Source of the DNA: Eubacteriales bacterium | GTDB taxonomy: Bacteria > Bacillota > Clostridia > Oscillospirales > CAG-272 | Assembly (NCBI GenBank): GCA_045547015.1 | Contig: JAZQDY010000212.1 | Coordinates: 1-34,147 of the forward strand | Direction: 5' to 3' | DNA length: 34,147 bases | Part shown: piece after piece, positions 11,756 to 25,934 of the stretch | Layout: the number at the start of each line of letters is the position of its first letter | How positions within the stretch are numbered: position 1 is the stretch's first letter | Made by a program: the position numbers and the translations under genes | Notes under the pieces: generated by a model | What the model saw: only the letters and a program-made list of their open reading frames with translations | What the model was told of the DNA's origin: nothing | Database searches by the model: none

Positions 11756-11796
11756 ACCGTTTTGCGAATTCCCCCTTCATTACAGAGAGGGCTTTT

Positions 11797-13473
11797 TTAT
11801 CCATTGCTTTTGTCAATTGCCGAATAATCTACAAAACTGATATTTACATCCAGATCGGCATGGGGTACGCCTTCAAAGTTTCCGGTGCACCCGTACTGCC
11901 AGATGTCAAAATCGTAGTAGAATGTGGGCTTGTCTTTATATTCCGCGTACCAGAAATCGTAGTTATCAATGCGGCTCAGCTCATAGTAGAGAAGTGAGAC
12001 ACTCTGGTTGCAGTATACCATGGGTATGTATCCGGCTTCTTCCACGGTGGAGCAGAATACGTTTGCCGCCTGGCAGAGCGCGTCTGTTTCGATGCCATTC
12101 GTCCGTGCAGAGGAAGCGTTGATTGTTTCCCAGTCAAAGACAACGGGGAATGTGATATTGTAGCCTTTTATCATATCCAGCAGGTATACGGCTTCGTCGT
12201 AGGCTTCCTGAGCATTCAGTGCCTGGGAGAAGAAGTACACGCCCACCTTGATACCGGCCTCAAGCGCGCCTTTTATGTTTTTTTCAAAGTATTCGTCTTT
12301 GTTCAGCTTACCGCTTTCGTATCCCCGGTAGCCAACTCGGATAAAAGCAAAGTACACGCCTTCTTCCTTCAGCTTCTGCCAGTTTACATCTCCCTGCCAG
12401 GAGGATACGTCCACGCCAAACCAGTGGGGGCGCGTATCGTCCAGATAATGCATGATGCCTTTTTCGTCCTTCAAAAACAGATCGGTATCGTAGGAGCATA
12501 CCGGCAGCTGCGGATTGATAGGCACAATATAGGAGGCCGCTTTCAGATACCGTACGAACCCACCGGCTGTGTAGGAATAAATCTTTCCGTAGTGATTGCA
12601 GGTTTTGAAAAGAACCGTTTCATGATCCACTCCCTCGGTGAGAATGATGTTTCCTCCGATATCGTAGTTTTTGATTGTTACGTCGTCGGAGGCGATAATC
12701 ACGAAATCTGCCAGGCCTTCAAAAGGACGGTAATTGTATTCACCGGGCTTGTCAATGTAGGTGGTAATCATGTTGCTGAGAACGGTTACCGCTTCTGCGC
12801 GGGTGAGCGAATCCAGCGGGAAAAAGTTGCCCCCGTCACTGCCGTGCAGAAATCCGGCATCCGTCATGGCGATGATGTACCCTCTCGCCCAGTCGGAAAT
12901 CGTTTCGTAATCAGCGTATACGAAGGTTTCTGCCTGCGGATCGTCCTGTGCCTCGTGATTGTCAGGCAGCTTGTAATCGGCAGGCGCAAAGCCGAAGGCG
13001 CGGGCAATAAGAACCATGGCTTCTTCCCGGGTTACCGGGGTGTCCGGCAGGGCACGGCCCAGCTCATCTCCCAGCATGACGCCGGCGGCACGGAGTTTCT
13101 GCATCTCTTCCTCATATGGGTGACCGTATGTGTCAGCAAACGGTATGTCCGATATGGTTTTGTAATGCATGATGCGGGTCAGAAGCCATGCAACCTCTCC
13201 GCGGGTGATGGACTGATCGGGCAGAAATGCCTCTCCTCCCGGAAGAAGCCCCAGCGTGTGAAAGCGTCCCACGGCATCCGCCGCCCAGTGTCCCACTGTG
13301 TCGTTGTAGCCGGGATGTTCCGGGATTTCCGAAATCGGTCCGGCAGTGGTTACGGTAATATATTCTGCAGGGGGTGTTTTGTCTTTTTCGTTCGTCGACC
13401 CTGCCGCAAAAACAGGCACGGCAGAGAAAAGAAGGGCGGCTGCCAGCACAGCCGACAGAAGTCTCTTTTGCAT
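11797..13473 (-). CDS. secreted cell-wall hydrolase: signal peptide, SLH repeats and a C-terminal GH25 muramidase
   Basis: The signal peptide is MQKRLLSAVLAAALLFSAVPVFAAG. SLH-like repeats include GHWAADAVGRFHTLGLL and ITRGEVAWLL. The GH25 motifs are FGVDVSSWQGDVNWQKLKEEGVYFAFIRVGYRGY and GVYFFSQA. Confidence 0.88.
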   Translation of the reverse strand: MQKRLLSAVLAAALLFSAVPVFAAGSTNEKDKTPPAEYITVTTAGPISEIPEHPGYNDTVGHWAADAVGRFHTLGLLPGGEAFLPDQSITRGEVAWLLTRIMHYKTISDIPFADTYGHPYEEEMQKLRAAGVMLGDELGRALPDTPVTREEAMVLIARAFGFAPADYKLPDNHEAQDDPQAETFVYADYETISDWARGYIIAMTDAGFLHGSDGGNFFPLDSLTRAEAVTVLSNMITTYIDKPGEYNYRPFEGLADFVIIASDDVTIKNYDIGGNIILTEGVDHETVLFKTCNHYGKIYSYTAGGFVRYLKAASYIVPINPQLPVCSYDTDLFLKDEKGIMHYLDDTRPHWFGVDVSSWQGDVNWQKLKEEGVYFAFIRVGYRGYESGKLNKDEYFEKNIKGALEAGIKVGVYFFSQALNAQEAYDEAVYLLDMIKGYNITFPVVFDWETINASSARTNGIETDALCQAANVFCSTVEEAGYIPMVYCNQSVSLLYYELSRIDNYDFWYAEYKDKPTFYYDFDIWQYGCTGNFEGVPHADLDVNISFVDYSAIDKSNG

Positions 13474-13615
13474 ACTGTCTCCCGATGAAAAAATATCGTA
13501 AGTACATTATACAGGAATTTTTCTGTCGAAAAATGGACGTTTTGTGAATGATGCATCCTGTTCACAAGGAAATTTTTTCCGAAAGAGACAAAAAGACGGT
13601 GGATCCCGGTTGCTC

Positions 13616-13644
13616 TTGCATCCTCACGCCGTTTATGCTATAAT
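13616..13644 (+). promoter_or_regulatory. sigma-70-type promoter upstream of trmO
   Basis: TTGCAT (13616-13621), a 17-nt spacer, then TATAAT (13639-13644). Confidence 0.5.
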
Positions 13645-13670
13645 AGAGAATCATAGAAACAGGGACGGGG

Positions 13671-14381
13671 ATGCGCATGAAAAAAACGGAACAGACGGTG
13701 AGTATACAGCCCATCGCCCACATCCGCACCGGCTTTTCGGAGAAATTCGGGATTCCGCGGCAAAGCGGCCTGGTGGACGCGGTAAAAGGACGGGTGGTGT
13801 TTCTGCCGGCGTACCGCAATCCGGATGCACTGCGGGGGCTGGAATCTTTTTCCCACATCTGGCTCATCTGGCACTTTACAAAAGCGGTGCGTGCAGAATG
13901 GAGTCCCACCGTTCGCCCGCCCCGGCTGGGCGGGAATACACGTATGGGGGTGTTTGCTACGCGATCCCCCTTTCGCCCTAACAATCTGGGACTTTCCTGT
14001 GTCCGGCTTGAGGGAATCGATTACGAGGCCCCGGATGGACCGGTACTGCTTGTATCCGGTGTGGATATGCTGGACGGGACGCCGATTTTTGACGTAAAGC
14101 CGTACGTGCCGCTGGCGGACTGTCGTCCGGAGGCCTCAGAGGGGTATACCGCGGAGACACGGGAACATTGTCTTACCGTGCATATTCCCACGGAGTGGGC
14201 AGAGTCTCTTTCCGTCGAGGATCGGGCGGCACTCGTGGGGATTCTGGAAAATGATCCCCGTCCCGGCTACGACAACGATCCGAATAACGAGTACGGATTG
14301 ACATTCCAGCAGTATGACGTAGGATTTACCGTAGACGGTACGGAACTTTATGTAGTCCGTCTTTCCATTCGGAGTGAATAA
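13671..14381 (+). CDS. trmO: tRNA (N6-threonylcarbamoyladenosine(37)-N6)-methyltransferase TrmO (TsaA/YaeB family)
   Basis: The sequence IAHIRTGFSEKFGIPRQSGL...LESFSHIWLIWHF...RPPRLGGN..GVFATRSPFRPN matches the YaeB/TsaA signature. Confidence 0.88.
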   Translation: MRMKKTEQTVSIQPIAHIRTGFSEKFGIPRQSGLVDAVKGRVVFLPAYRNPDALRGLESFSHIWLIWHFTKAVRAEWSPTVRPPRLGGNTRMGVFATRSPFRPNNLGLSCVRLEGIDYEAPDGPVLLVSGVDMLDGTPIFDVKPYVPLADCRPEASEGYTAETREHCLTVHIPTEWAESLSVEDRAALVGILENDPRPGYDNDPNNEYGLTFQQYDVGFTVDGTELYVVRLSIRSE

Positions 14382-14419
14382 AAAAGTGCGTCCGTGGATA
14401 GCTCGCGGACGCACTTTTT
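14381..14419. terminator. bidirectional intrinsic terminator between trmO and the convergent small ORF
   Basis: AAAAAGTGCGTCCG pairs with CGGACGCACTTTTT. A-run and T-run flanks fit termination on both strands. Confidence 0.65.
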
Positions 14420-14440
14420 ATGGAGATGGACCAGTGTGAT

Positions 14441-14740
14441 TCATAGAAGATCTTCCAGCACGTCGGAAAGCGTGCAGGGAGTGACCGCTCCCTCCGTGAT
14501 CAGACGGAACAGCTTTTCCGCTTCGTCTGTATCCGCCGTCACGTCTTCAATCATGCGGGCGTCATTGTTGGCAGAATTGCCGTCAAAAAGGGTGACTGCG
14601 ATGGAGAAAGAGGAAGTATGTCCGGTGTCCGTGCGCAGAAGAATGCTGATGAGTGTAAGTCCCTCTCCCACGTGCCGTACGACGACCTTCGTGGGACGGA
14701 TGCTGTGATCCGTGAGAATGGTTTCCTTGGGGAAAAGCAT
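14441..14740 (-). CDS. hypothetical small protein (99 aa)
   Basis: The ORF has a balanced composition, lies between a terminator and an intergenic region, and has no competing ORF. I recognise no family. Confidence 0.5.
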   Translation of the reverse strand: MLFPKETILTDHSIRPTKVVVRHVGEGLTLISILLRTDTGHTSSFSIAVTLFDGNSANNDARMIEDVTADTDEAEKLFRLITEGAVTPCTLSDVLEDLL

Positions 14741-15035
14741 AATAATGTCCTCCTTTGCGTGCCGTCAGAGACGGGACGATACTATTATACCACATGGCAA
14801 AGCGGCGGAAGATGCAGAAAACGGTGCGTCATAATGCCGCTTTTTTTGCTGTTTGGATGGATTTTTCAGCAGTTTTTTTCGAAAAGTGGGGAGAATACGC
14901 GAATTTTGCGTTGTTTTGAGGCGGTTGTGCCCAGTATGGAAAGAAAATTATTCCAAACGGGATGCAATATATATTAATAACAGGGCGAAGAATTTTATAA
15001 AAAACTGTAAAGTGGCGTAAATCTTGCATATTTGG

Positions 15036-15064
15036 TTGAAATTCCGGCAGATTTGTGCTATAAT
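15036..15064 (+). promoter_or_regulatory. sigma-70-type promoter upstream of the MATE gene
   Basis: TTGAAA (15036-15041), a 17-nt spacer, then TATAAT (15059-15064). Confidence 0.5.
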
Positions 15065-15203
15065 ACAACAAATGTGTGCACTTTTTGTGTGCACGGTATT
15101 TTTTTGACTGTAGCACGGGGTAATGCAGATGACTACTCAACATGGTCAGGGGATTCTTTATCGGTTGTTTTCTCCCAATTGTATGGTAGGAAACGATTTG
15201 CGC

Positions 15204-16547
15204 ATGGAGGAAAGGTATTCTTTTGGAATGTACCGTTCCTTTATGAAGATTGCCTGGCCGGCACTGATTGAAGCGGTGCTGGGCGGTCTTGTGAATTTCG
15301 TGGACTCTCTCATGGTATCCGTTGTAGGTGAGGAAGGCGTGGCCGCCGTCGGTCTTACCGGACAGCCCCGTATGATTTTTTATTCCCTGTTTTTGTCCAT
15401 GAGTATCGCCGTCAACGCTATCGTCAGCCGGCGCTTTGGCGAAAAACGGCAGGAAGATGCCAACCGATGCCTGGCCACGGTACTGCCGGTGACGGTGCTG
15501 GTGGGAATTCTGTCTACGGTGGTATCGTTTGCCGTGGCGCGGCCGCTTTTGTTGTTCGCCGGTGCCCAGGAGGATACCATTGAACTGGCTATCCCGTATT
15601 TCCTGATTACCATGGTAGGACTGAATTTTACCGCCGTTTCCATTATGATAAATGCCGCCCACCGTGCCTGCGGCAATACGAAAATAACGCTGGTCACCAA
15701 TATGACTGCCAATGTTATCAACGTCATGTTCAACGCCATCCTGATTAACGGACTGTTCGGCTTCCCCAAACTGGGCGTGACCGGTGCCGCTGTCGCTACG
15801 CTGATGGGTAACGTCTCCACGGCAGTTATTTCCATCGTATCGGTGCTTCGTAAAAACGGATATCTCAGACTGCGGCTGAAGTATATGATTCGCTGGGATT
15901 TCCCTCAGTTGGGGCTGATCTTCCGTATCGGAAGCGGTTCTCTTACGGAACAGGTTTTCATGCGGATCGGTTTTTTTACATATGCAAAGATTGTGGCGGA
16001 TCTGGGAACGATGGAGTTTGCCACCCACCAGATCGTGATGACCATTATGACGCTCACGTTTACGGTGGGCGACGGCCTCAGCATAGCGGCCGGTGCGCTG
16101 GTTGGACAAAATCTTGGCAAAAAACGCCCGGATCTGTCGCTGATCTACAGCCGGATCGGGCAGAGAATCGGTATCTGCATCGCGCTTTGTATGGTGGCGG
16201 CCTTTACTGCGGCCGGCACACCCATTATGCGGATGTTCTCCGATGACGATATGGTCATCCGCACCGGTGTGTACCTTCTGGGAATTCTTGCGATAGCCGC
16301 TCCCTTCCAGGTGGTGCAGGTGGAATGCCGCGGCTGTCTGAACGGCGCGGGTGATACCAAATTCATGGCGGTTGTCTCCTTCGTTTCCATCGCGCTGGTG
16401 CGTCCCGTGCTGGCGTATGTGCTCTGCTATCCGGTGGGATGGGGCATTTACGGTGCGTGGCTTTCTATGCTGATTGATCAGATGACCCGCTGCGCTCTTG
16501 CCTTGTGGCGGTTTTCCGGCTCTGCCTGGTATCAGAAAAAGGTTTGA
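15204..16547 (+). CDS. MATE family efflux transporter
   Basis: The protein has about 12 TM segments. The start MEERYSFGMYRSFMKIAWPALIEAVLGGLVNFVDSLMV is typical of MATE proteins. The start codon is uncertain, because the frame is open from the ATG at 15123. Confidence 0.85.
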   Translation: MEERYSFGMYRSFMKIAWPALIEAVLGGLVNFVDSLMVSVVGEEGVAAVGLTGQPRMIFYSLFLSMSIAVNAIVSRRFGEKRQEDANRCLATVLPVTVLVGILSTVVSFAVARPLLLFAGAQEDTIELAIPYFLITMVGLNFTAVSIMINAAHRACGNTKITLVTNMTANVINVMFNAILINGLFGFPKLGVTGAAVATLMGNVSTAVISIVSVLRKNGYLRLRLKYMIRWDFPQLGLIFRIGSGSLTEQVFMRIGFFTYAKIVADLGTMEFATHQIVMTIMTLTFTVGDGLSIAAGALVGQNLGKKRPDLSLIYSRIGQRIGICIALCMVAAFTAAGTPIMRMFSDDDMVIRTGVYLLGILAIAAPFQVVQVECRGCLNGAGDTKFMAVVSFVSIALVRPVLAYVLCYPVGWGIYGAWLSMLIDQMTRCALALWRFSGSAWYQKKV

Positions 16548-16612
16548 CAGATCATGATTTGTTACATACACTTATTGTACAGCGTTATAAAATAAGGAAG
16601 GATAGATAGTAT

Positions 16613-17566
16613 ATGCACTCTTCATCCGTATCAAAGCAGATCGTATCTGCTCTGCTTTTAGTAATTGCCGCTTTCGTTTGGGGAAGTACGTTTGTTGCCC
16701 AGAGCGTGGGCAGTGATTCTGTGGAAGCGTTTACGTTTCTCACCAGCCGGTCATTCATTTCCGCCGCGGCTCTCCTCCCCGTAATTGCAGTGCGCAAAGC
16801 ACTGCGCCCGAAAGATATGCCCGAGACGCGGGAAGAAAGCGCTTCCGCTTCGCCGCGTACTCTTTGGTTGGGCGGCATCCTCTGTGGCGTGGCACTTATG
16901 GTGGCAAGCGGTATCCAGCAGATCGGCATCAAGGATACTACCGTGGGCAAGGCCGGCTTTATTACGGCGATGTACATTGTGATTGTGCCGCTGCTGGGCA
17001 TCTTCTTGAAAAAGCGGATCGGACTGAATGTGTGGGCGGGCGTGGCTATTGCCGTCACCGGTATGTATTTCCTCTGCATTACGGAGGGATTCAGCATCAG
17101 TCGGGGAGATTTCCTCGTGCTGATCTGCGCGTTCTGTTTCTCACTCCACATTCTTGTGATCGATTATTTTTCACCCAAGGTGGACGGCGTAAAAATGTCG
17201 TGCATCCAGTTTTTCACCTGCGGCGTTCTGTCGCTGTTCCCCACGTTCCTTCTGGAAAAACCGTCTCTTGCGGACGTGCAGGCGGCGGCACTGCCGATCC
17301 TCTATGCAGGTCTTCTCTCCGGTGCGGTGGGATATACTTTGCAGATCATCGCGCAGAAGAATCTCCAGCCTACGGTGGCGTCTCTTATCATGAGTCTGGA
17401 ATCGGTGTTCTCCGTGCTGTCCGGCTGGGTGGTCCTCCGGGAGGGGCTTTCCGCAAGAGAGCTGATCGGCTGTCTTCTGATGTTTGCGGCGATTCTTCTG
17501 GCACAGCTGCCGGGGGATCTTTTCCGGAGAGGGAAACGCAACCCGCACCCGGACGGGGAAAAGTGA
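16613..17566 (+). CDS. DMT superfamily (EamA-like) transporter
   Basis: The protein has 10 TM segments in two EamA repeats. WGSTFVA lies near the N-terminus. Confidence 0.85.
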   Translation: MHSSSVSKQIVSALLLVIAAFVWGSTFVAQSVGSDSVEAFTFLTSRSFISAAALLPVIAVRKALRPKDMPETREESASASPRTLWLGGILCGVALMVASGIQQIGIKDTTVGKAGFITAMYIVIVPLLGIFLKKRIGLNVWAGVAIAVTGMYFLCITEGFSISRGDFLVLICAFCFSLHILVIDYFSPKVDGVKMSCIQFFTCGVLSLFPTFLLEKPSLADVQAAALPILYAGLLSGAVGYTLQIIAQKNLQPTVASLIMSLESVFSVLSGWVVLREGLSARELIGCLLMFAAILLAQLPGDLFRRGKRNPHPDGEK

Positions 17567-17583
17567 AAAAATAAAAAATTCTG

Positions 17584-17612
17584 TTGACAAAAGTGTACCG
17601 CTGTGCTATAAT
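17584..17612 (+). promoter_or_regulatory. consensus sigma-70 promoter for tRNA-Val
   Basis: TTGACA (17584-17589), a 17-nt spacer, then TATAAT (17607-17612). It lies about 18 nt upstream of the tRNA 5' end. Confidence 0.6.
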
Positions 17613-17629: not shown

Positions 17630-17706
17630 GGAGGCATAGCTCAGCTGGTTAGAGTACTTGCTTGACATGCAAGGGGTCACTGGTTCGATCCCAGTTGTCT
17701 CCACCA
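17630..17706 (+). tRNA. tRNA-Val (anticodon GAC), CCA encoded
   Basis: A hand-folded cloverleaf fits. The acceptor stem is GGAGGCA/TGTCTCC with one G-U pair. The D arm is GCTC..GAGT. The anticodon stem is CTTGC/GCAAG with loop TTGACAT. The T arm is ACTGG-TTCGATC-CCAGT, followed by a discriminator A and CCA. Confidence 0.9.
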
Positions 17707-17748: not shown

Positions 17749-17790
17749 TTTACACGATTTTTACACGATTTTGAGGCTTTACACGATTTT
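17749..17790. repeat. three direct copies of TTACACGATTTT at the tRNA/integrase junction
   Basis: The copies start at about 17750, 17761 and 17779. The third contains the integrase stop codon (AAAATCGTGTAA on the minus strand). Confidence 0.7.
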
Positions 17791-18885
17791 ATTCAGTATT
17801 GCAACGGCGCGTTCTTCTTCCCGGGGGTACAAATGGGAGTAGGTATTCCAGGTGATTTCCACTTTACTGTGACCAAGACGGCGGGCCACTTCCTGGATGC
17901 TGATTCCCTCGTTTACGAGGAGAGAGGCATGTGTGTGACGGAAATCGTGTATGCGGATATGAGGGAGTCCGGCAGCGGCGGAGTATGCTTTGTTTTTGTT
18001 TTCGATGCTGGAATCGCGGAGAACAGAGGATCCGCCGCATACGCGGTAATCTTCGGTGAAGCGGCTGTCCTTCTGTTGCCGTTGCTTGTGGGTGTGGAGG
18101 ATCTCCATCAGCGGGAGCGGGATCTGCAGATCGCGGTAGGAACTTTTATTCTTTGGCGGGGTTTCTATATCGCCGCCTTTCAGTTTCTGCGCGATGCTCC
18201 GGCGGACGTGCAGCGTGGTACCTTCGATGTCGCTCCATTTGAGGGCGTTGATCTCCCCTTTGCGCATTCCCGTGTAGAATGCAATGGAGAAGAAGACATA
18301 ATATGGCCAGTCGCCGGATTCCCGGGCGACGGCAGAAAATTCCTTGTACTGCTCGGCGGTGTAGTATTTCAATTTCTCAGCGGGCTTTTCAAAATACACG
18401 TCCTGAAACGTGCCGACAGATTTCAATGGATTGCGGCGGATGCGTTCCAGTTTTACCGCCCAGTTGAGCATGGAATTGAGTTCTTTGTACACATTCCGTT
18501 TTGTTGTGAGTGCCAGCTCCAATTCACCTACATCGTTTTTCCACTTTTGCAGGCGCTGCGGGGTGAGATGCTCCAGACGGACGGATCCGATTCGGGGAAG
18601 AATATGTGTTTCCAGCACATTTCTGGACTTATCCCACGAGGTGGCGCGGACAGACTGCTTCTTTGCGGCCATATAGTCATCATAGAGTTCCCTTACGGTA
18701 ATTCGTTCCGTGGGGGATTTTTCTTTTATATCGGAAAGGAGTTTTGCTTCCAGCTGTTTGGCGGAATCCTTACCGTAGGCGATGCGATCGAGCTGCTTTG
18801 CGTTTCCGCTTGCATCTGTGTAGTTGATACGTACTCGGTACTGCTGCAGACCGTCCTTTTTCCCGGACATTTTGTAGATCGGCAT
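17779..18885 (-). CDS. int: tyrosine-type site-specific integrase (phage integrase family)
   Basis: The arm-binding-like N-terminus reads MPIYKMSGKKDGLQQYRVRINYTD. The catalytic region reads GMRKGEINALKW...HDFRHTHASLLV...LGHSKVEITWNTYSHLY. The start is trimmed to the ATG at 18885, after AAGGAG. Confidence 0.93.
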   Translation of the reverse strand: MPIYKMSGKKDGLQQYRVRINYTDASGNAKQLDRIAYGKDSAKQLEAKLLSDIKEKSPTERITVRELYDDYMAAKKQSVRATSWDKSRNVLETHILPRIGSVRLEHLTPQRLQKWKNDVGELELALTTKRNVYKELNSMLNWAVKLERIRRNPLKSVGTFQDVYFEKPAEKLKYYTAEQYKEFSAVARESGDWPYYVFFSIAFYTGMRKGEINALKWSDIEGTTLHVRRSIAQKLKGGDIETPPKNKSSYRDLQIPLPLMEILHTHKQRQQKDSRFTEDYRVCGGSSVLRDSSIENKNKAYSAAAGLPHIRIHDFRHTHASLLVNEGISIQEVARRLGHSKVEITWNTYSHLYPREEERAVAILNKIV

Positions 18886-19009
18886 GTTGCGGCTCCTTTT
18901 TCGATAATATGTGTGTAGTTTGTCTTTGTAAATAAGGGTTTGTATTATGTATCGTTGTAATAGCGGATTTATATGAGGAAATTTGCTATTAAAAAAGTGA
19001 GTTTTTGTA

Positions 19010-19060
19010 TTGACAAAAGTTGTACGAAGTGATAAAATGTAGTATAACAAATATGTTATA
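19010..19060 (+). promoter_or_regulatory. promoter plus palindromic operator upstream of the toxin-antitoxin-chaperone operon
   Basis: TTGACA (19010-19015), a 17-nt spacer, then TAAAAT (19033-19038). The 18-bp palindrome TATAACA-AATA-TGTTATA (19043-19060) follows immediately. Confidence 0.5.
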
Positions 19061-19097: not shown

Positions 19098-19463
19098 TTG
19101 TACAAGGTTGAGGTATATAAAACAGCGGCAGGAAATGCCCCGGTCAAAGAATACATGCAGGACATTTTGGTAAAACGTCATGGCGTAACTGAACATGCAA
19201 AAGTTAGTTTGTTTATCGAGCGTTTAGAAGAGTACGGGCTGGAGATAAATAAACATTACCCCAGATCCATGAAATATCTTAGGGACGGAGTGTATGAGCT
19301 TCGTCCGGGTGATAACCGCGTATTGTTTTTCTATTGGAGTAGTGAAGGGTACTTCGTCCTGTTGCACTGTTTCAAAAAGAAAAGACAAACGACCCCGCCG
19401 AGAGAAATAGACCAGGCGATAAAAGAGTATAAAGATCATATAAGGAGGAACGGCAATGGCTAA
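19098..19463 (+). CDS. type II toxin, RelE/ParE superfamily, phage Gp49 / HigB-like
   Basis: The sequence MYKVEVYKTAAGNAPVKEYM...YLRDGVYELRPGDNRVLFFYW..GYFVLLHCFKKKRQTTPPREIDQA matches the Gp49-like addiction-module toxin pattern. The start is TTG. It overlaps the next gene by 8 nt. Confidence 0.85.
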   Translation: MYKVEVYKTAAGNAPVKEYMQDILVKRHGVTEHAKVSLFIERLEEYGLEINKHYPRSMKYLRDGVYELRPGDNRVLFFYWSSEGYFVLLHCFKKKRQTTPPREIDQAIKEYKDHIRRNGNG

Positions 19464-19863
19464 GTACACAGTAGATGAAATGTTTAACGAACTGAAAGAA
19501 GATCCACGTTATAGAAAACCAGTTGAGGTTTCTGCAACAGTGTGCCGCATAATTGGGGATATTTCAAAGGCACGGGTAAAGAATAACCTATCTCAAAAGG
19601 AGTTGGCAGAGCTCTGCGGAATGAAGCAGTCTGCTATCGCACGAATTGAAAATATGCACAGCATTCCAAGATTAGATACACTTGCGCGAATTGCTCATGA
19701 AGTAGGAGTAGATATTCATTCATCTGTGTGTGAAACAAAATGTGTAAGAATGCGTATAGGTGCTGTAGAGAAACAGCGTATTGAAACTGCTGCAAAACAG
19801 CAATATCTTTCAAAATCAAAGTATAAATGGCAGCTGGGAGCAGTTTGTGCTATAATCAAATAA
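19456..19863 (+). CDS. XRE-family HTH antitoxin (HigA-like) with a roughly 45-aa C-terminal extension
   Basis: The HTH reads LSQKELAELCGMKQSAIARIENMHSIPRLDTLARIAHEVGVDI. The gene is translationally coupled to the toxin. The tail after the HTH reads SSVCETKCVRMRIGAVEKQRIETAAKQQYLSKSKYKWQLGAVCAIIK. Confidence 0.85.
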   Translation: MAKYTVDEMFNELKEDPRYRKPVEVSATVCRIIGDISKARVKNNLSQKELAELCGMKQSAIARIENMHSIPRLDTLARIAHEVGVDIHSSVCETKCVRMRIGAVEKQRIETAAKQQYLSKSKYKWQLGAVCAIIK

Positions 19864-19943
19864 AGATTGACCATGTTTAATTGGTGCTATTAAATTTTTT
19901 TGGATATAATGTGTCGGTTGATTTAGAAAATTAGGAGTAATAT

Positions 19944-20342
19944 ATGAGTGTTTTTTCAAATATAGAGATAATTACTAATGAAGTTAAAATGACAAACCAT
20001 CAAATGCCTGCTGGGGAATATGAGTTAATACCTACGTTTTCACGCAAGATAGGGAGATTGGCTGGGAATAAATGCTTTACCGAATTGAGTGTTGCGATCA
20101 CCAACACCGAGGAACATCCATTTCCGATTGATCTATATGTACGCATGACCGCTGTATTTTCGATTGATAACATTCCGTCAGAAGATGTTGACAATTTCTT
20201 GGAGATCGATGGAGTGGCTATTCTATACCCATATTTACGATCACTAATTTCATCCGTTGCTGCAAGTGCTTTAATGCCGCCGCTCGTTCTTCCTGTACTT
20301 GACATGGAACTGCTTTTTGAGGATAAAGATTCAGAATCATGA
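19944..20342 (+). CDS. SecB-like chaperone
   Basis: The C-terminal two thirds, DLYVRMTAVFSIDNIPSEDVDNFLEIDGVAILYPYLRSLISSVAASALMPPLVLPVLDMELLF, align by eye to E. coli SecB [63 protein letters not shown]. The RBS is AGGAG. Confidence 0.72.
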   Translation: MSVFSNIEIITNEVKMTNHQMPAGEYELIPTFSRKIGRLAGNKCFTELSVAITNTEEHPFPIDLYVRMTAVFSIDNIPSEDVDNFLEIDGVAILYPYLRSLISSVAASALMPPLVLPVLDMELLFEDKDSES

Positions 20343-20441: not shown

Positions 20442-22238
20442 TTAATTGGAAATCCATTTGTGAGCGCGCCGGAAGCCGAGGGACTCCGCTTCTGCTACGG
20501 TCATGCAGTATCCTTCGCCTTTCTTTTTATCGATAATAACGCGGTCGTACTGCTGATCGAATGGAAGATGATAAATCTTTTCACCGTTCTTGCCAATGTT
20601 ACATTTTATTTTGGGATAAGGTTTTAACGGGAGATCTTCCCGAACGGTTACATGTAATTCGCGGGCAACTGCATTGGCACACTCGGAGAGGGCAGTGGTT
20701 GTTACAAATAAAGGAATAACGGTTTCTTGTGGGTGATCTATTCGATACAGGATAGTGGATCCATAAAGTTGGAATATGTGCTTTTCGTGGATGGTCTTAT
20801 GCTTATCCCAGCGTTTGCACTGTATTACGTAAACCCTGCCGTCTTTTTTTGCAATGATGTCACGTCCCATGTCGTCGTATCCATCCAGAGCACCACGATA
20901 TTCCACGTCAAAGTCGTGGCTTTCATACACCCATCCAACGTATCGTTCGTACATAATACCGGCCTCCCAAGCGGAGCGGGCGCGTGACTCATAGCGATCC
21001 AACGCAAGCTGGTATTTCTCAACGGTGGAGAGATTGGCGTATTCGGTGGCTGAAATCCAATCCTTCAGACTGTCCCATTCGGTGTCGCCCGTTGGCTCTG
21101 CCAGCATTTCTTTGGTGGGCGGGTCAGTGATGAAATCTTCCAGCCAGGGGAAAGTGTGGGTAAGATAGGATAACTGGCTTTCAAGCATCTTTGCCTTGAA
21201 GGTGGCATCTCGCTTCTCTTTGCTGATCCGTTTTAACTCATCCTTTTTTGTGGTTCGCGGAATTGCATCAATGCGCTTATTGTCGATGGTTTTATAATAT
21301 TCCGCTATGCGTTCTGCGAGCCACGGACTGCTTTGAGAGCGGGTGTTTACGATCTTCTGTATATCAGAGCGTTCGCGGTCGATCTCGGATTTGAGCTTGG
21401 TGCATTGGGTGAGCTCGGAACGTAGTGCTTCGTGGTTGGGTAAGAGAAAAATGCCGAGTTCCAGTGCGAGGGTGTACATGTGTTTGCAAGGTTTGCCTTG
21501 GGTGTTGTATTTGAAATCGGGACAGGTACAGGAAGTGAGCGTGGTTTCGTACTCCGTGCCGTCTTTCGCTGAAATGTATTTGGCACGGGTGAGAATGTCA
21601 GAATGATGTATGCCTTCAGCGAAGGCGTGGTGCAAACGAGTGCAGTCTACATCTTTGCTCCAAGTGTATTCTGATTGGTTTTTTGGAAGGAGAGCACGGC
21701 TCAACTGTTTAGTGTTTGACACCCAGTTTTTAAGATTATTGTAATCGACAGATAATGTACGGAAATTTTCTTGTAGTTTTTGCAATTCCTGCTTGAACTC
21801 TTCGCGTTCTCTGTAAAGCGTAACATTGTGTGAAGAAAAATAATCGTTTCGGCTATTCAATCTTTGTTCAAGTTCGCTTTTGTCGGCGATGAGTAATTCT
21901 ATGCGATTAGTTAAACGAAGAATCTCAGCATTTTTTTCATCAAGAAGATACATCTGTTCTTCGATAATTCGTTTATCATCGGGTGAGCAAGGGGCTTGCT
22001 GAATAATGTTGTGGTACTCCTCAGAGTGTGTTTCACTGGCTTTAAGCAACGCATCATGCGATTTCTTTAAGGAGGAATATTCAGATTCAAGTTTACGTAC
22101 CCTTGGGGCGTCTTGCTCAAATTGTTGCAATCTCTTGTAGCCATCGTAACTTCTGGAAATCCAACAAAAAAAGGAAAATAGAAGAATTAAGCCAACAGGA
22201 AGGGAGAGCACGAAAACAATAACCATCCATTCCGGCAC
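20442..22238 (-). CDS. membrane-anchored coiled-coil protein with a SWIM zinc finger, a Mrr-like PD-(D/E)xK nuclease domain and a C-terminal sunset-like motif
   Basis: The protein is 598 aa.
- TM helix, aa 4-27: WMVIVFVLSLPVGLILLFSFFCWI.
- Heptad-rich region, about aa 35-180.
- SWIM CxCx11CxH: SCTCPDFKYNTQGKPCKHMY, aa 236-254.
- Mrr_cat-like core: YERYVGWVYE...DDMGRDIIAKKDGRVYVIQCKRW.
- C-terminus: IKCNIGKNGEKIYHLPFDQQYD...VAEAESLGFRRAHKW.
The GTG start lies 7 nt after the repressor stop. Confidence 0.8.
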   Translation of the reverse strand: MPEWMVIVFVLSLPVGLILLFSFFCWISRSYDGYKRLQQFEQDAPRVRKLESEYSSLKKSHDALLKASETHSEEYHNIIQQAPCSPDDKRIIEEQMYLLDEKNAEILRLTNRIELLIADKSELEQRLNSRNDYFSSHNVTLYREREEFKQELQKLQENFRTLSVDYNNLKNWVSNTKQLSRALLPKNQSEYTWSKDVDCTRLHHAFAEGIHHSDILTRAKYISAKDGTEYETTLTSCTCPDFKYNTQGKPCKHMYTLALELGIFLLPNHEALRSELTQCTKLKSEIDRERSDIQKIVNTRSQSSPWLAERIAEYYKTIDNKRIDAIPRTTKKDELKRISKEKRDATFKAKMLESQLSYLTHTFPWLEDFITDPPTKEMLAEPTGDTEWDSLKDWISATEYANLSTVEKYQLALDRYESRARSAWEAGIMYERYVGWVYESHDFDVEYRGALDGYDDMGRDIIAKKDGRVYVIQCKRWDKHKTIHEKHIFQLYGSTILYRIDHPQETVIPLFVTTTALSECANAVARELHVTVREDLPLKPYPKIKCNIGKNGEKIYHLPFDQQYDRVIIDKKKGEGYCMTVAEAESLGFRRAHKWISN

Positions 22239-22245: not shown

Positions 22246-22872
22246 TCACCTTACCTTACTCAAAAATGCAACAGCCAGTCCGATGATCCGGATGTTCTTG
22301 GCGTCCTTGGCCGTGTATATCTGCGGCTTGATCGCCGGGTTCTCGGCCTGCAGGATCATGCTGTCGCCGTCACGGTACACCCGCTTCAGCGTGGCTTCGT
22401 CGTCTACGAGTACCGCCGCGATCTGTCCGTCGTCTACGTCGTCCTGCTGCTTGATATACACCAGATCGCCATCGTAGATCCGGGCACCGATCATGCTGTC
22501 ACCTTTGCAGCGGAGGCAGAAATCGGCGGTGATGTGAGAGGGAACAGTGACGGTCTGCTCCACGTTCTCCGTGGCGAGAATAGGCGTACCGCAGGCGATG
22601 TCGCCCAGCAGCGGAATCTCGTACGTCTCCGGGAGAGGGAGAATGTTTGCGGCGGCGGGGGAGTTCCTTGTGTTTGGGGAAGTTCTGCCGAGAAGAAAAT
22701 CGACGGTAACGCCGAAATGTTCAGAAATGCTTGTCAGAATTTCCATAGAAGGCATAGTTCCGGTTTCATACTTACCAACGGAGGATCGCTCTACGCCAAT
22801 GATTGTAGCGAGTTGTTCTTGCGTTAATTTGTGTCGCTTGCGAAGAGTTTTTAAATTCTCGGCGAGTGTCAT
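22246..22872 (-). CDS. CI/LexA-like phage repressor (XRE HTH plus S24 peptidase domain)
   Basis: The HTH reads MTLAENLKTLRKRHKLTQEQLATIIGVERSSVGKYETG. The S24 domain reads CKGDSMIGARIYDGDLVYIKQQ...GQIAAVLVDDEATLKRV, with the Ser/Lys dyad. The start is trimmed to the ATG at 22872. Confidence 0.9.
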   Translation of the reverse strand: MTLAENLKTLRKRHKLTQEQLATIIGVERSSVGKYETGTMPSMEILTSISEHFGVTVDFLLGRTSPNTRNSPAAANILPLPETYEIPLLGDIACGTPILATENVEQTVTVPSHITADFCLRCKGDSMIGARIYDGDLVYIKQQDDVDDGQIAAVLVDDEATLKRVYRDGDSMILQAENPAIKPQIYTAKDAKNIRIIGLAVAFLSKVR

Positions 22873-22893
22873 AATGTCACCCCTTTCGAAATA

Positions 22894-22995
22894 ATTATAG
22901 TGAATAAAATTCACTAAGTCAACATATTCTGAAAGAAATTCACAAAAACTATTGACAAGACACATGAATAGCAGTATAATGTGAATGTAATTCAG
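22894..22995. promoter_or_regulatory. divergent lysis-lysogeny switch region: two face-to-back promoters and three operator-like 15-mers
   Basis: Rightward promoter: TTGACA (22952-22957), 17 nt, TATAAT (22975-22980). Leftward promoter: TTGACT (rc of 22917-22922), 17 nt, TATAAT (rc of 22894-22899).
Operators:
- O1: GTGAATAAAATTCAC, 22900-22914
- O2: CTGAAAGAAATTCAC, 22929-22943
- O3: GTGAATGTAATTCAG, 22981-22995. Confidence 0.6.
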
Positions 22996-23026
22996 AAAAA
23001 CAAAGCAAAATGTGAAAGGAGAATGT

Positions 23027-23236
23027 ATGAATATCTTTCAATCAATGAGAAAAGAAGCCGGGATCAGTCAGGCAATGCTTGCAGACAGAGTTGGTGTTGA
23101 GAGATCAACTGTAGCAAAATGGGAGACAGGAACAAGCCTGCCCCGGGCAGATCTTCTGCCGAAGCTGGCGGACGTGCTGGGCTGCACGGTGGACGAATTG
23201 CTCCGTCAGCCGGAACAAAAAGAAACTCCCGCCTGA
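23027..23236 (+). CDS. Cro-like XRE-family HTH regulator
   Basis: MNIFQSMRKEAGISQAMLADRVGVERSTVAKWETGTSLPRADLLPKLADVLGCTVDELL. The RBS AAAGGAG lies upstream of the ATG at 23027. The gene is divergent from the repressor. Confidence 0.85.
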   Translation: MNIFQSMRKEAGISQAMLADRVGVERSTVAKWETGTSLPRADLLPKLADVLGCTVDELLRQPEQKETPA

Positions 23237-23252
23237 TGCGGGAGAGGGAGGA
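23215..23252 (-). repeat. copy 1 of a thrice-repeated hairpin element (minus-strand intrinsic terminator; the plus strand reads hairpin plus AGGGAGG)
   Basis: The sequence is CAAAAAGAAA-CTCCCGC-CTGAT-GCGGGAG-AGGGAGG. On the minus strand the 7-bp GC stem is followed by TTTCTTTTTG. The cro stop codon lies in the loop. Confidence 0.7.
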
Positions 23253-23271
23253 AGGGTGTATGAATTGTCCA

Positions 23272-23309
23272 GAAAAAGGAGCAGCACCCCCGGATGGACA
23301 GGGGTGCTG
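23272..23309 (-). terminator. minus-strand intrinsic terminator
   Basis: The 9-bp stem pairs CAGCACCCC (23282-23290) with GGGGTGCTG (23301-23309). On the minus strand it is followed by CTCCTTTTTCT. There is no T-run on the plus strand. Confidence 0.6.
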
Positions 23310-23418
23310 GCAAAAGATGGGGAGCGAGATAAATGGCTGATTTATCTCGTGATTAGACAGCGGTTAGGCGTCCGCTGACGCAAAGATTTGGATCGCGAAG
23401 CGATTCGGAATCTATAGC
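23272..23418 (-). ncRNA. candidate small RNA of about 147 nt (ORF-less transcription unit), antisense to the post-cro early transcript
   Basis: The unit is bounded by a consensus leftward promoter (23425-23453) and the terminator at 23272-23309. I saw no ATG in the interval. Internal stems are GAGATAAAT/ATTTATCTC (23326-23348) and CAGCGG/CCGCTG. The 5' end is complementary to the SD/start region of the upstream 27-aa ORF. Confidence 0.45.
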
Positions 23419-23424
23419 AAGGTC

Positions 23425-23453
23425 ATTATAGCAAAAATCAAGCATTTTGTCAA
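23425..23453 (-). promoter_or_regulatory. consensus leftward promoter with an extended -10
   Basis: The minus strand reads TTGACA (rc of 23448-23453), 17 nt, then TGcTATAAT (rc of 23425-23433). Confidence 0.6.
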
Positions 23454-23559
23454 TACTCAAGCGAAAGAATCCGGCGTACTACACCAAGCATGAGCGATTG
23501 TGAAAACGGCGGCGCCTAATCCGTGCCTCAACTCGCACGCCGGAAGACGGGGCTATGTC

Positions 23560-23643
23560 TTACTTGCGCTTGCTGTTACAGTATACGCTGTACATAAGGC
23601 CAGCGAATGCGATTGCAATCTGGATAATGCTATAGATGTCCAT
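23560..23643 (-). CDS. 27-aa hydrophobic peptide, type I toxin-like or holin-like (candidate)
   Basis: The peptide is MDIYSIIQIAIAFAGLMYSVYCNSKRK: one TM-length hydrophobic stretch plus a basic tail. AAAGGA lies 11 nt upstream of the ATG. An extended -10 promoter, TGCTATACT (rc of 23688-23696), has TTGCTT 17 nt upstream. The ORF is below the length cutoff of the ORF track. Confidence 0.35.
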   Translation of the reverse strand: MDIYSIIQIAIAFAGLMYSVYCNSKRK

Positions 23644-23712
23644 TTGAATTTCCGCGATCCTTTCTGCTCACCGTGCGGGTAATAAACAGTATAGCACAGA
23701 ACATGACAAAAA

Positions 23713-23756
23713 GCAACAGCAAAAACAAAATCCCGCCTGATGCGGGAGAGGGAGGT
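23713..23756 (-). repeat. copy 2 of the repeated terminator-promoter cassette
   Basis: The sequence is GCAACAGCAAAAACAAAA-TCCCGC-CTGAT-GCGGGA-GAGGGAGG. On the minus strand the hairpin is followed by TTTTGTTTTTG. It lies about 100 nt downstream of the 99-aa leftward ORF and directly upstream of the promoter of the 27-aa ORF. Confidence 0.7.
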
Positions 23757-23854
23757 TTGGTATATGAAGGCATGGGAGAGGGCGCACGCTTTTTGGTGTC
23801 GCCGACGTATGGAGTGGGATGCTTCGCGAAGCAAGTGGTACGTTGACCGTATGG

Positions 23855-24154
23855 TCAGAGTGCCGCGAGGATGGCTTGGGCTTTTTTGTAGGCTGAACGC
23901 GCCACGCACCGGATTTCGAGCGAGTCAAATTCGAGACCGAGCTGCAAGGCGTCAAGAATGACGCGGATTTCGTTTGCGGTGAACGTGGTGAACATCGTGT
24001 AAGTTTCGAGTTTTTGGCACACGGAATTGAATAATGGACCGTATTCACCGGCATCGAGGGCGAAAAACAAAACTGAAAGTTCAATGTTTTCGTTGATATT
24101 GGCGAGAAATTCATAGATAAGATTTATCTCGCGCGGCGTAAACGTATTGCTCAT
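23855..24154 (-). CDS. hypothetical 99-aa protein, leftward-transcribed moron-like gene
   Basis: MSNTFTPREINLIYEFLANINENIELSVLFFALDAGEYGPLFNSVCQKLETYTMFTTFTANEIRVILDALQLGLEFDSLEIRCVARSAYKKAQAILAAL has a balanced, helical-looking composition. The RBS is AAAGGA. Its own promoter reads TTGCAT, 17 nt, TGcTATAAT (rc of 24188-24216). Its terminator is repeat copy 2. Confidence 0.6.
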   Translation of the reverse strand: MSNTFTPREINLIYEFLANINENIELSVLFFALDAGEYGPLFNSVCQKLETYTMFTTFTANEIRVILDALQLGLEFDSLEIRCVARSAYKKAQAILAAL

Positions 24155-24212
24155 GAAGGTGAATTCCTTTCGGCTATAGATGGTTTAATTATAGCACGGA
24201 GAGGAACCAAAT

Positions 24213-24256
24213 GCAACAACAAAAAGAAACTCCCGCCTGATGCGGGAGAGGGAGGA
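24213..24256 (-). repeat. copy 3 of the repeated terminator-promoter cassette
   Basis: The sequence is GCAACAACAAAAAGAAA-CTCCCGC-CTGAT-GCGGGAG-AGGGAGG. The core is identical to copy 1. The TCCCGCCTGA cores start at 23227, 23731 and 24231. Confidence 0.7.
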
Positions 24257-24260: not shown

Positions 24261-24569
24261 ATGGGAATAAGAGTAAGAGTGCCGCCGATTGTGAGCGTGG
24301 AAGTGGCTGTTCGGGTGTACTGGAGTTATCCGGAGCTTGGGAATCCGCAGCTGGCGGAGCTTTTCGGGAAAAGATCGCCAAATACATACTCCAGCCTAAA
24401 AAAAGCGGCCTGGGAAGTCATGCGGGAAGATGATATGTTTTCCACAAATGCAAGTCGAGTGAATACCGATGCCGCGTACCGTGCATGGGGACTTGACATT
24501 GACGATCTGACGAAAAGATACACTCGTTTGCAGAGGATCGGCGTGATTCCAAAGGAGAGGCGGACATGA
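24261..24569 (+). CDS. hypothetical early protein (102 aa)
   Basis: The ATG at 24261 lies 6 nt after the AGGGAGG of repeat copy 3. This is the first gene of a tightly overlapping rightward operon. Confidence 0.6.
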   Translation: MGIRVRVPPIVSVEVAVRVYWSYPELGNPQLAELFGKRSPNTYSSLKKAAWEVMREDDMFSTNASRVNTDAAYRAWGLDIDDLTKRYTRLQRIGVIPKERRT

Positions 24570-24913
24570 GCCGGCCGTGGATGAGTGACGGGGACATCGT
24601 AATGATGTACCGGCAGGCGAAGTCTCCGCCGCAAGAGATCAAGGTGCTTGCCGAGTTGAACGGCGTTACCCGGGACGTGATCGTGGAGATCCTTAAGCGG
24701 AACGGGGTGGATATGCTGACGAAAGGGCAGAGATCCGGAAAGAAAAAGGCTCCGCGGTGGACGGCGGAGCAGGATGCGATTCTCGTGGACATGCTGTCGG
24801 CGGGAGCAAGCTACACGGCGATCGCGGAAAGAATCGCCAGAAGCAGGTATGCAGTTAAAACGCGGGTGTATACACTCGGGATGAACCAGAAGAAATATGT
24901 TAAAGGAGATTAA
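24566..24913 (+). CDS. putative DNA-binding protein with two HTH/Myb-like segments
   Basis: The start overlaps the upstream stop (ATGA) and the RBS is AAGGAGAGG. The segments are EIKVLAELNGVTRDVIVEILKRNG and WTAEQDAILVDMLSAGASYTAIAERIARSRYAVKTRVYTLG. Confidence 0.55.
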   Translation: MSRPWMSDGDIVMMYRQAKSPPQEIKVLAELNGVTRDVIVEILKRNGVDMLTKGQRSGKKKAPRWTAEQDAILVDMLSAGASYTAIAERIARSRYAVKTRVYTLGMNQKKYVKGD

Positions 24914-24916: not shown

Positions 24917-25189
24917 ATGAAGTACAATATTACGATCAAGGACAACGAAACCGGCGAGGTAGTGCAGGCTTTCGACACGAATGCCATTATCGGAGCGATA
25001 GGAGCCGGAAAGGGAAGGGCACGCGGAATCTTCTTAACGGAGTGCACGAAAACTGAGATAGCAGAGGCGGTGCTGGCTGCGACGAAAATCGTGGATACCG
25101 TGGTAGAAGAAGACAAAGAACTGGAACTGCTTGTTATGTTGAGTGGAATCAAGCAGATGAAAGCCGGAAAGGTCGGGGATTCGCTGTGA
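24917..25189 (+). CDS. hypothetical protein (90 aa)
   Basis: The RBS is AAAGGAG. The gene is packed in the operon. I recognise no family. Confidence 0.55.
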   Translation: MKYNITIKDNETGEVVQAFDTNAIIGAIGAGKGRARGIFLTECTKTEIAEAVLAATKIVDTVVEEDKELELLVMLSGIKQMKAGKVGDSL

Positions 25190-25632
25190 AGGTAAAGATA
25201 CGGCCGCACAATCTGCCAGCGGCACAGAGAGGTGAGCTGGAACGTGCGGCGCGGGAGTACATAGCTCAGGAGTTGGAGGCGTATTCCAAAAAACTGAAAT
25301 GGATACTCCTACGGCGAATGGTATATGCAGTATGCCTTGCTTTGTCTGACCAGTACGGATTTGGTTCCAAGCGATGCCAGCGGGTGGTAGACGGTGCCGT
25401 GGAAATCATCACCGGTGTCTCCGAGGACGTATACAGGAAGGGCGAAATCGATCCGGACGGCGTAGACAAGGCAGCCGATAATATGCTGGCGGAGCTTGCG
25501 GACAGAGGGATAGAGATCGTTATTGAGGGGGACGACCTCTACGACGATACCAGGAAAATCAACGAAAGAAAGGAAAAAGAAATCGCCTCCGGTGCTGGCA
25601 CACGCGGAAGCGACAAGGTAATAACCCAATGA
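25186..25632 (+). CDS. hypothetical protein (148 aa)
   Basis: The GTG start overlaps the upstream stop. Composition looks coding. Confidence 0.55.
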   Translation: MKVKIRPHNLPAAQRGELERAAREYIAQELEAYSKKLKWILLRRMVYAVCLALSDQYGFGSKRCQRVVDGAVEIITGVSEDVYRKGEIDPDGVDKAADNMLAELADRGIEIVIEGDDLYDDTRKINERKEKEIASGAGTRGSDKVITQ

Positions 25633-25934
25633 AATTATATCAGATTCGAAAGATTTTGTCAAGGGACGTCCTGGAAACGGCGGCGGGGTACATCCTGCCG
25701 GCGGTGCTGGTGGTGGATATCAAAGCCGGGCTGTGCTTCTTCGCCATGACGGGCGGTGCACAGTTGACGGGCGGGGGCATGGCACTTGCGGTGTTTTTCG
25801 CTTTGCAGATTGCCGTATGCCTCGCCGCTGTGGTCTCAGGTGTGGTTTGTGTATGGAAGCGGGCGCGGATGCCAAAACGGTATGGCGTCATTCAGCCGGA
25901 GACGATCCGGCAGCTGCTGGAGGGGCGGAGATGA
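25629..25934 (+). CDS. hypothetical small membrane protein (101 aa, about 2-3 TM)
   Basis: The start overlaps the upstream stop (ATGA). Hydrophobic stretches are ILPAVLVVDIKAGLCFFAM and ALAVFFALQIAVCLAAVVSGVVCVW. Confidence 0.55.
   Translation: MKLYQIRKILSRDVLETAAGYILPAVLVVDIKAGLCFFAMTGGAQLTGGGMALAVFFALQIAVCLAAVVSGVVCVWKRARMPKRYGVIQPETIRQLLEGRR

Follow-up and report, generated by a model that had tools for sequence, protein, structure and literature searches.

A candidate type I toxin-antitoxin-like cassette with a nested, same-strand small RNA in a prophage of a Eubacteriales bacterium

Type I toxins are small hydrophobic peptides with a transmembrane segment and a charged C-terminus (PMC6563280), and the antitoxin RNAs described for them are encoded on the opposite strand, either overlapping the toxin gene or adjacent to it and divergent (PMC12390103). 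The trans-encoded, prophage-borne RalA also lies in the opposite orientation (PMC4041452). Here we analysed a candidate type I toxin-antitoxin (TA)-like cassette in a prophage of a Eubacteriales bacterium (contig JAZQDY010000212.1). The window is the complete 34,147-nt NCBI contig, and the cassette is a block of approximately 500 nt (23245-23747). The block lies in the interval from cro to the early genes, and its transcription runs counter to that of the early operon. The cassette consists of an open reading frame (ORF) for a 27-aa peptide and, on the same minus strand and 106 nt downstream of the peptide stop codon, a predicted small RNA (sRNA) gene. The reading that we tentatively prefer is that of a self-contained type I TA-like moron, in which the antitoxin would be nested in the 3' untranslated region (UTR) of the toxin and repression would take place at translation initiation.

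In the proposed mechanism, the cassette would be an accessory moron of a prophage at tRNA-Val and would comprise two nested same-strand transcription units. A weak promoter would give an mRNA for a single-pass membrane peptide, with a poorly spaced Shine-Dalgarno (SD) sequence, and this mRNA would read on to the sRNA terminator. A perfect internal promoter would give a non-coding RNA of about 143 nt sharing the 3' end of the mRNA. The first 29 nt of this sRNA would pair with the SD, the AUG and codons 3-5, and the peptide would thereby be repressed at translation initiation. Free sRNA, which would be abundant, could mask the start in trans, and the 3' region of the read-through mRNA, once transcribed, could do so in cis by folding the identical sequence onto it.

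When the cassette was compared with the trans-encoded type I systems tisB/istR-1, shoB/ohsC, zorO/orzO, dinQ/agrB and ralR/ralA, the same combination of a small (here putative) toxin gene beside a separately promoted sRNA was observed. In these systems, as in the cassette, a limited and partly discontinuous complementarity (16-21 nt in the known systems) derives from a short DNA inverted repeat, and RalR/RalA is also prophage-borne (PMC4041452). Their sRNAs act on translation of the toxin mRNA, which resembles the role proposed here. However, their antitoxin genes are on the opposite strand, divergent or convergent (PMC4041452, PMC12390103), whereas that of the cassette is downstream, on the same strand and co-terminal with the predicted toxin read-through mRNA. 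There is no sequence similarity between these systems and the cassette. To our knowledge, Hfq dependence is not to be expected in a Bacillota-like host.

The CD0956.2/RCd10, txpA/RatA and bsrG/SR4 systems of C. difficile and B. subtilis are, like the cassette, found in Bacillota prophages, and their toxins are likewise small, with an N-terminal transmembrane helix and a lysine-rich charged C-terminus (PMC6563280, PMC7699646). It has been proposed that such prophage modules help to stabilise the element (PMC6563280, PMC7699646). In contrast to the cassette, the antitoxins of these systems are convergent, overlapping antisense RNAs which form long perfect duplexes. Their toxins are 28-60 aa long and those of C. 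difficile are interrelated, whereas the 27-aa peptide matches none of them. In hok/Sok and aapA1/IsoA1, fold-back silencing combined with a separate RNA antitoxin is established: the full-length mRNA sequesters its own SD via a 3' segment, as is predicted for the read-through mRNA of the cassette, and the region is also the target of a distinct small RNA, as would be the case here (PMC9841398, PMC5416894). The 3' fold-back element of hok and aapA1 differs from the antisense RNA in both sequence and strand, whereas in the cassette one sequence would serve both purposes.

The nearest precedents on the same strand are phage immunity RNAs. The CI RNA of phage P4 is a same-strand immunity RNA which pairs via short separated patches at the ribosome-binding site, and c4 is arranged in the same operon as its targets, of which the first, icd, is toxic. 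The P1/P7 c4 RNA (immI) resembles the cassette sRNA as a prophage small RNA encoded on the strand of its target and pairing through short separated patches at the ribosome-binding site (PMC12197685). Both c4 and CI are processed from an operon leader upstream of their targets and control immunity, whereas the cassette RNA has its own promoter, lies downstream and has a peptide gene as its predicted target; in sequence they are unrelated to it. Small RNAs of the DapZ/MicL type are nested in the 3' region of an upstream mRNA, with their own internal promoter and a shared terminator, and regulate unlinked mRNAs. The cassette has the same nested architecture, but its predicted target is the parent mRNA itself. 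In full-text searches of a literature library, no type I system with both genes in the same orientation was found. We would therefore place the locus, on its sequence features, among elements that may work like a type I TA and not within a toxin or RNA family.

The 27-aa ORF (MDIYSIIQIAIAFAGLMYSVYCNSKRK; 23560..23643, minus strand) encodes a single hydrophobic stretch, predicted to form one helix, followed by a basic NSKRK tail (best 19-residue Kyte-Doolittle mean 1.64). When the 99 ATG ORFs of 22-45 aa in the six frames were compared, four were as hydrophobic, and the peptide alone also had a basic tail. The traits by which type I toxins are recognised (<60 aa, hydrophobic, predicted transmembrane segment, charged C-terminus; PMC6563280) are all present in it. 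Its promoter (TTGCTT-17-TGcTATACT; 23688..23716, minus strand) has TTGCTT at 23716-23711, a 17-nt spacer and an extended -10 at 23693-23688, with a predicted transcription start at about 23683-23680. The translation initiation region (23629..23668, minus strand) includes the SD AAAGGA (23663-23658), the ATG (23643-23641) and codons 2-5; the target arm of the inverted repeat occupies 23660-23629.

The predicted sRNA (23274..23418, minus strand) was divided into a 5' domain complementary to the peptide start region (GCUAUAGAUUCCGAAUCGCUUCGCGAUCC; 23390..23418), stem-loop SL1 (23377-23358), stem-loop SL2 (10 bp, CGAGATAAAT/ATTTATCTCG; 23349-23325) and a terminator (23309-23282 plus a T-run), all on the minus strand. 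Its promoter (TTGACA-17-TGcTATAAT; 23425..23453, minus strand) is present as originally predicted and matches the consensus at 12 of 12 positions with an extended -10. Only four such perfect promoters were found in the 34-kb contig, namely those of the sRNA, the tRNA and cro and one further antisense site. The interval contains no ATG and no plausible ORF, in agreement with the original prediction; the stem of its terminator, given there as 9 bp, was found to have 11 pairs (8 of them G-C), followed by CTCCTTTTTC. The predicted fold of the sRNA is far more stable than that of shuffles (z of -7.0) and has, besides the terminator, two stem-loops and a weak hairpin at the 5' end. The 12/12 promoter with its TG, the strong terminator, the lack of an ATG and the fold are in silico features that would fit an antitoxin RNA made from its own promoter. 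A riboswitch or leader was rejected as an identity for this RNA: the sequence downstream has two terminators and then the convergent cro, with no gene on that strand, and Rfam was negative.

The sRNA and the peptide start region can form 26 bp (9+3+4+10) between sRNA nt 1-29 and the mRNA at 23660-23629, which cover the SD, the AUG and codons 3-5. Specifically, sRNA nt 1-9, 10-12, 13-16 and 20-29 pair with AUCUAUAGC, GGA, AUUC and GGAUCGCGGA of the mRNA, and the seed patches are GCUAUAGAU and CGCGAUCC. The matches had been given as 8, 4, 3 and 9 nt; their placement was correct and their count slightly low. The duplex energy was -36.7 kcal/mol, compared with -21±3.5 for dinucleotide shuffles (none of 2000 reached it). 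When unfolding costs were included by cofolding, the ddG was -22.0 compared with -11.2±2.4 (none of 300). The peptide start was also the best non-self target of the sRNA 5' domain by energy on both strands of the contig (-37.0; next -33.8). The 9-mer ATCTATAGC has exactly three copies in the contig, all within 23410-24181, whereas 0.26 would be expected (2 x 34,147 / 4^9). In a contig-wide scan, in which each 40-nt window was compared with the DNA 60-500 nt downstream, the repeat was in the top 0.4 % of windows by Watson-Crick alignment, a composition-neutral measure.

No intrinsic terminator was predicted between the ORF and the sRNA promoter, where the candidate hairpins are weak and lack a proper U-tract. 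Thus, the peptide mRNA is predicted to read through to the sRNA terminator (approximately 400 nt). In the 404-nt read-through RNA, the helix between the start region and the sRNA 5' segment was present in both the minimum free energy (MFE) and the centroid structures (z -4.15), which supports the intramolecular fold-back that had been offered as an alternative to pairing in trans. In a shorter RNA ending before the sRNA promoter, the SD region (23669-23652) instead paired with CCGGAUUCUUUCGCUU (23474-23459) in a local 16-bp helix, again in both MFE and centroid; the mRNA 3' UTR carries CCGGATTCTTTCGCTT at 23459..23474 (minus strand). The long-range helix sequestering the SD is therefore predicted in two alternative forms, each from a single sequence.

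The boundaries of the cassette are formed by a terminator/SD element (CTCCCTCTCCCGCATCAGGCGGGA plus a T-run), of which the contig has three copies where 0.1 would be expected by chance. Copy A (23226..23250, minus strand) forms the downstream boundary and is a second terminator which shields cro from minus-strand transcription. Copy B (23721..23755, minus strand; hairpin TCCCGC-ATCAG-GCGGGA plus T-run) forms the upstream boundary and is the terminator of a 99-aa gene, ORF99. The third copy is located at 24230-24255, and the spacings of the boundary repeats are 504 and 500 nt. A terminator scan recognised the element as an intrinsic terminator on the minus strand; on the plus strand its hairpin holds the cro stop codon, and the SD of the following early gene is provided by its 3' flank (GGGAGAGGGAGG). 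In contigs with cro homologues of approximately 65-70 % identity (L018-L026), a single copy follows cro and the next plus-strand gene begins 20-40 nt later. The element (approximately 30-40 nt) is conserved after cro across a group of phages which includes these contigs and the related contigs L001 and L005.

Three related contigs (L001, L002 and L027) carry ORF99 at 95-97 % identity and have no cassette: the ORF99 stop codon is followed, after approximately 112 nt, directly by the terminator element and cro. The block 23245-23747 has therefore been gained or lost as a discrete unit with a direct repeat at either end, and such a clean indel fits an autonomous add-on module. The window has two minus-strand units between element copies, ORF99 and the peptide/sRNA cassette. 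Because there is one copy per inserted minus-strand moron, the element looks like a recombination junction at which accessory cassettes are swapped. The first 66-67 nt of the cassette, which hold the terminator and the promoter as far as the -10, are an 83 % identical duplicate of the sequence preceding ORF99, and the peptide promoter is a paralogue of the ORF99 promoter. The idea that the cassette arose by tandem duplication of the ORF99 unit and then diverged was rejected, as the similarity ends at the -10 and further on does not exceed chance. A MITE-like element with the inverted repeat as its ends was rejected as well: it has neither further copies nor a target duplication, and the true indel boundaries are the direct terminator repeats.

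ORF99 (24154..23855, minus strand) is conserved, with three database cluster representatives of 64-97 % identity and a further member of the 97 % cluster that is 95 % identical. Its promoter is conserved in L001, L003 and L005, and its predicted structure is all-helical at low confidence (pLDDT 60). The 5' end of its mRNA holds a third exact copy of the 9-mer AUCUAUAGC (24173..24181, minus strand), which is complementary to sRNA nt 1-9. In addition, the 3' arm of SL2 is complementary to ORF99 codons 8-11 (11 nt; GCGAGATAAAT, 24122-24132), and SL2 (23324-23349) holds an exact 10-11-nt copy as well as the complement of these codons. The sRNA may have been built from inverted fragments of the ORF99 5' region. 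The ORF99 leader is a possible second target of the sRNA, which we give as a lead only; the predicted interaction is weak (ddG -5.6), and both sites also occur, one of them with a single change, in L001, which has no sRNA. The ORF99 leader was also tried and rejected as a CI operator: it is operator-like in this contig, but is conserved in L001, where the operators are different. A 65-aa plus-strand ORF (MKAWERAHAFWCRRR...; 23764-23961) starts right after element copy B and overlaps the 3' end of ORF99 (23855-24154) by approximately 107 nt. Its protein, including the part outside the overlap, is conserved (65 aa in L001, 72 aa in L005 and 155 aa in L003; frameshifted in L027), and the two may be a convergent, overlapping gene pair.

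Searches for relatives covered proteins, genomes and RNA families. For the peptide, Pfam and NCBIfam gave no family at E<=10, and this includes the holin-like toxin models that the original prediction had proposed for a check. PADLOC gave no match to it, an exhaustive phmmer search of 1.84 billion representative proteins gave none at E<=0.001, and tblastn against phage genomes gave none. No similarity of the peptide was found to Hok, Fst/Ldr, TxpA/BsrG, Ibs, ShoB, TisB, AapA, Hol-Tox or C. difficile CD0956.2-like toxins. When the region was compared by blastn with 50,697 phage genomes and 72,556 plasmids, nothing was found. Pattern scans of IMG/VR gave no match to the seed, the terminator element, the promoter plus seed, the back-translated peptide (two patterns), SL2 or the ORF99 protein. 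A scan of GTDB genomes with the promoter plus seed returned 12 matches, all of them chance matches to the pattern only, and scans of JGI metagenomes returned 0 and 16 matches, the 16 being inside large unrelated proteins. An exact look-up of the spurious ORFs spanning the cassette in the protein collection returned none, and look-ups of the Cro of the window and of a 115-aa early protein (24566..24913) returned nothing. The cassette was not found in the contigs of Cro homologues that were examined. In Rfam, the contig had no match at the gathering thresholds except the tRNA, and at E<=10 there was one chance RNase P fragment; the sRNA matched neither the C4 antisense RNA nor a known antitoxin RNA family.

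The original prediction of a prophage type I TA is supported in its anatomy, whereas neither a known toxin family nor the opposite-strand order of described systems (PMC12390103) was found, both genes being on the minus strand. Several observations weigh against the TA-like reading. Its same-strand order departs from every described type I system, and there is no homologue of the peptide or the sRNA in any collection searched and thus no evolutionary support for a coding ORF or for selection on the pairing. The predicted extended -10 with TTGCTT 17 nt upstream of the 27-aa ORF is present, but the -35 matches at 3 of 6 positions only and was missed by the consensus scan. The AAAGGA SD is 14 nt before the ATG, which is a long spacing (a weaker GGA is 7 nt before it); this would suit a poorly translated gene, yet it weakens the case for translation at all. 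The short peptide mRNA is not unusually structured overall (z 0.3). The 9-mer is present in the ORF99 leader of relatives that lack the sRNA, and the match thus does not require the sRNA.

The complementarity itself must be read with the same caution. The shuffled controls bear it out when energies are used, as described above, and temper it when Watson-Crick pairs alone are aligned: the observed score was reached by 32 of 5000 shuffles with the whole mRNA and by 14 of 5000 with the start region only, which is moderate significance (p about 0.003-0.006). In the contig-wide scan, the raw duplex energy is ordinary (mean -28; -45 to -54 in GC-rich host genes), 57 overlapping windows, at roughly 10-20 loci, score as well as the repeat, and an unrelated site (16121-16210, plus strand) equals the seed match by Watson-Crick alignment. 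The base pairing that characterises type I TA systems is thus found computationally and is not unique in the contig. The complementarity exceeds chance only when adjacency and exact placement are counted, and given adjacency we regard the pairing as real, with a p of roughly 10^-3. What makes it persuasive is its placement, because one arm starts at the predicted +1 of a perfect promoter and the other spans the SD to codon 5.

Three other explanations were weighed. It is possible, though rather unlikely, that the sRNA is real and has its main job elsewhere, on ORF99, other phage or host mRNAs or the cro-promoted early transcript in the manner of lambda OOP, and that the 27-aa ORF is fortuitous or incidental. 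Small ORFs are common by chance (53 of >=20 aa in 3 kb), and the exact match of sRNA nt 1-9 to the ORF99 leader and the 11-nt match of the SL2 3' arm to codons 8-11 would suit such a role; however, complementarity of the 5' domain is greatest to the peptide start (ddG -22 compared with -5.6 for ORF99), the ORF99 sites occur in relatives without the sRNA, and the combination of hydrophobic helix and basic tail is unique among the 99 comparable ORFs. With the early transcript as the target, to which the sRNA is fully antisense, its strong convergent promoter could act by transcriptional interference or formation of an RNA duplex. The sRNA promoter indeed faces the 12/12 cro promoter approximately 470 nt away, with two tandem terminators protecting cro, and antisense RNAs appear to be a theme of the phage, as a second perfect promoter on the minus strand (25662-25565) would give a short transcript ending in a hairpin; on the other hand, the sRNA ends before cro and overlaps no early coding sequence. 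That the signals have no function at all, the repeat, ORF and promoter-like sites being by-products of recombination such as a partial inverted duplication of the ORF99 leader, we consider improbable. The cassette is unique to one contig, its first 66-67 nt duplicate the ORF99 terminator and promoter, it has a 9-mer and an 11-mer in common with the ORF99 5' region, and comparable inverted repeats occur elsewhere in the contig. Such by-products would not be expected to bring together independent signals (perfect promoter, strong terminator, z of -7, basic-tailed hydrophobic ORF and anchored pairing), and beyond the promoter the cassette resembles the ORF99 unit no more than expected by chance.

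Control in cis only, in which the 3' UTR of one mRNA of approximately 400 nt folds onto its own start in the manner of hok and aapA1, the internal promoter is minor and there is no antitoxin in the TA sense, seems more improbable still. It draws on the lack of a terminator between the ORF and the sRNA region, on the fold-back helix that both the MFE and the centroid structure of the read-through RNA contain (z -4.15) and on the second, local anti-SD helix, and type I toxin mRNAs are known to be controlled by fold-back (PMC5416894). However, a 12/12 extended -10 promoter whose +1 coincides with the first paired base is probably active and would yield free RNA far above the level of the mRNA. 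A type I TA-like moron with a same-strand layout remains our preferred account, plausible but unproven, and the other TA/defence morons of the same prophage, including a PD-T4-9-like HigB/HTH/SecB set, were counted in its favour. The promoters, ORF, terminator, RNA structure and complementarity, together with the presence/absence polymorphism of the cassette, are evident in the data. From these we infer that both RNAs would be made, that the peptide would be translated and harmful, and that the pairing would block it. A bolder form of this account, a type I TA of new architecture in which one nested same-strand sequence silences the toxin start in cis and in trans and the sRNA may also touch the ORF99 leader, appears doubtful to us.

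The host chromosome makes up bases 1-17,600 of the contig and encodes FtsK/SpoIIIE, thymidylate kinase, YceG/MltG and a GH25 muramidase with SLH domains; judged by its genes, this set is Bacillota/Clostridia-like. The prophage starts at tRNA-Val(GAC) (17630-17706) and its other end is beyond the contig. The tRNA has a 12/12 consensus promoter with an extended -10 (17584-17612, plus strand) 18 nt upstream. Its 3' end is likely the attachment site, because the integrase gene (tyrosine integrase; 19050..17779, minus strand) begins approximately 70 nt after it. Adjoining the integrase is a HigB/Gp49-like toxin, HTH antitoxin and SecB-like trio (19098-20342, plus strand) which matches PD-T4-9 defence models; the SecB-like chaperone matches PADLOC PD-T4-9_C (E 4e-14), and the trio looks like a toxin-antitoxin-chaperone defence moron. 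The related contig L019 has a ToxN toxin at the equivalent position. The CI repressor gene is immediately followed by the gene of a 598-aa Mrr/SWIM nuclease (20442-22238, minus strand). In this protein an Mrr-type restriction endonuclease domain and a SWIM zinc finger are accompanied by a coiled-coil-like region and an N-terminal membrane segment, and L021 has a SWIM protein at the same place.

The immunity region consists of the gene of an S24-HTH CI-type repressor (22965..22246, minus strand) and a Cro-type HTH gene (23012/23027..23236, plus strand) behind its 12/12 promoter. Four copies of a 13-bp palindrome, TGAAWnnnWTTCA, were found at 22901-23040, in the region of the divergent promoters of CI and cro; they presumably serve as CI/Cro operators. 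In L001 and L005 the operators and the N-terminal halves of Cro differ while the C-terminal halves are near-identical in DNA, which points to mosaic recombination inside cro. The early genes run on the plus strand from 24261. Inside this operon, at the junction of ORFs 25186..25632 and 25629..25934, the second perfect minus-strand promoter (TTGACAaaatctttcgaatcTGaTATAAT; 25662-25565) has a spacer start (TTGACAAAAT) resembling that of the sRNA promoter. Downstream of it come an 8-bp hairpin (CGCTTCCG/CGGAGGCG) and a T-rich tail. The unit is a candidate for a cis-antisense RNA of approximately 60 nt of the OOP type.

If the TA-like reading is true, type I TA logic would need no opposite-strand antitoxin, and screens limited to antisense or divergent sRNAs beside small hydrophobic ORFs would miss tandem, co-terminal modules. 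The cassette would also be a compact natural case of one RNA segment serving as both cis fold-back element and trans repressor. If it is not functional, it would show how the appearance of a toxin-antitoxin system arises in a mosaic recombination hotspot. The cassette adds to the picture of gut Clostridia prophages with TA and defence morons stacked on both sides of the immunity region.

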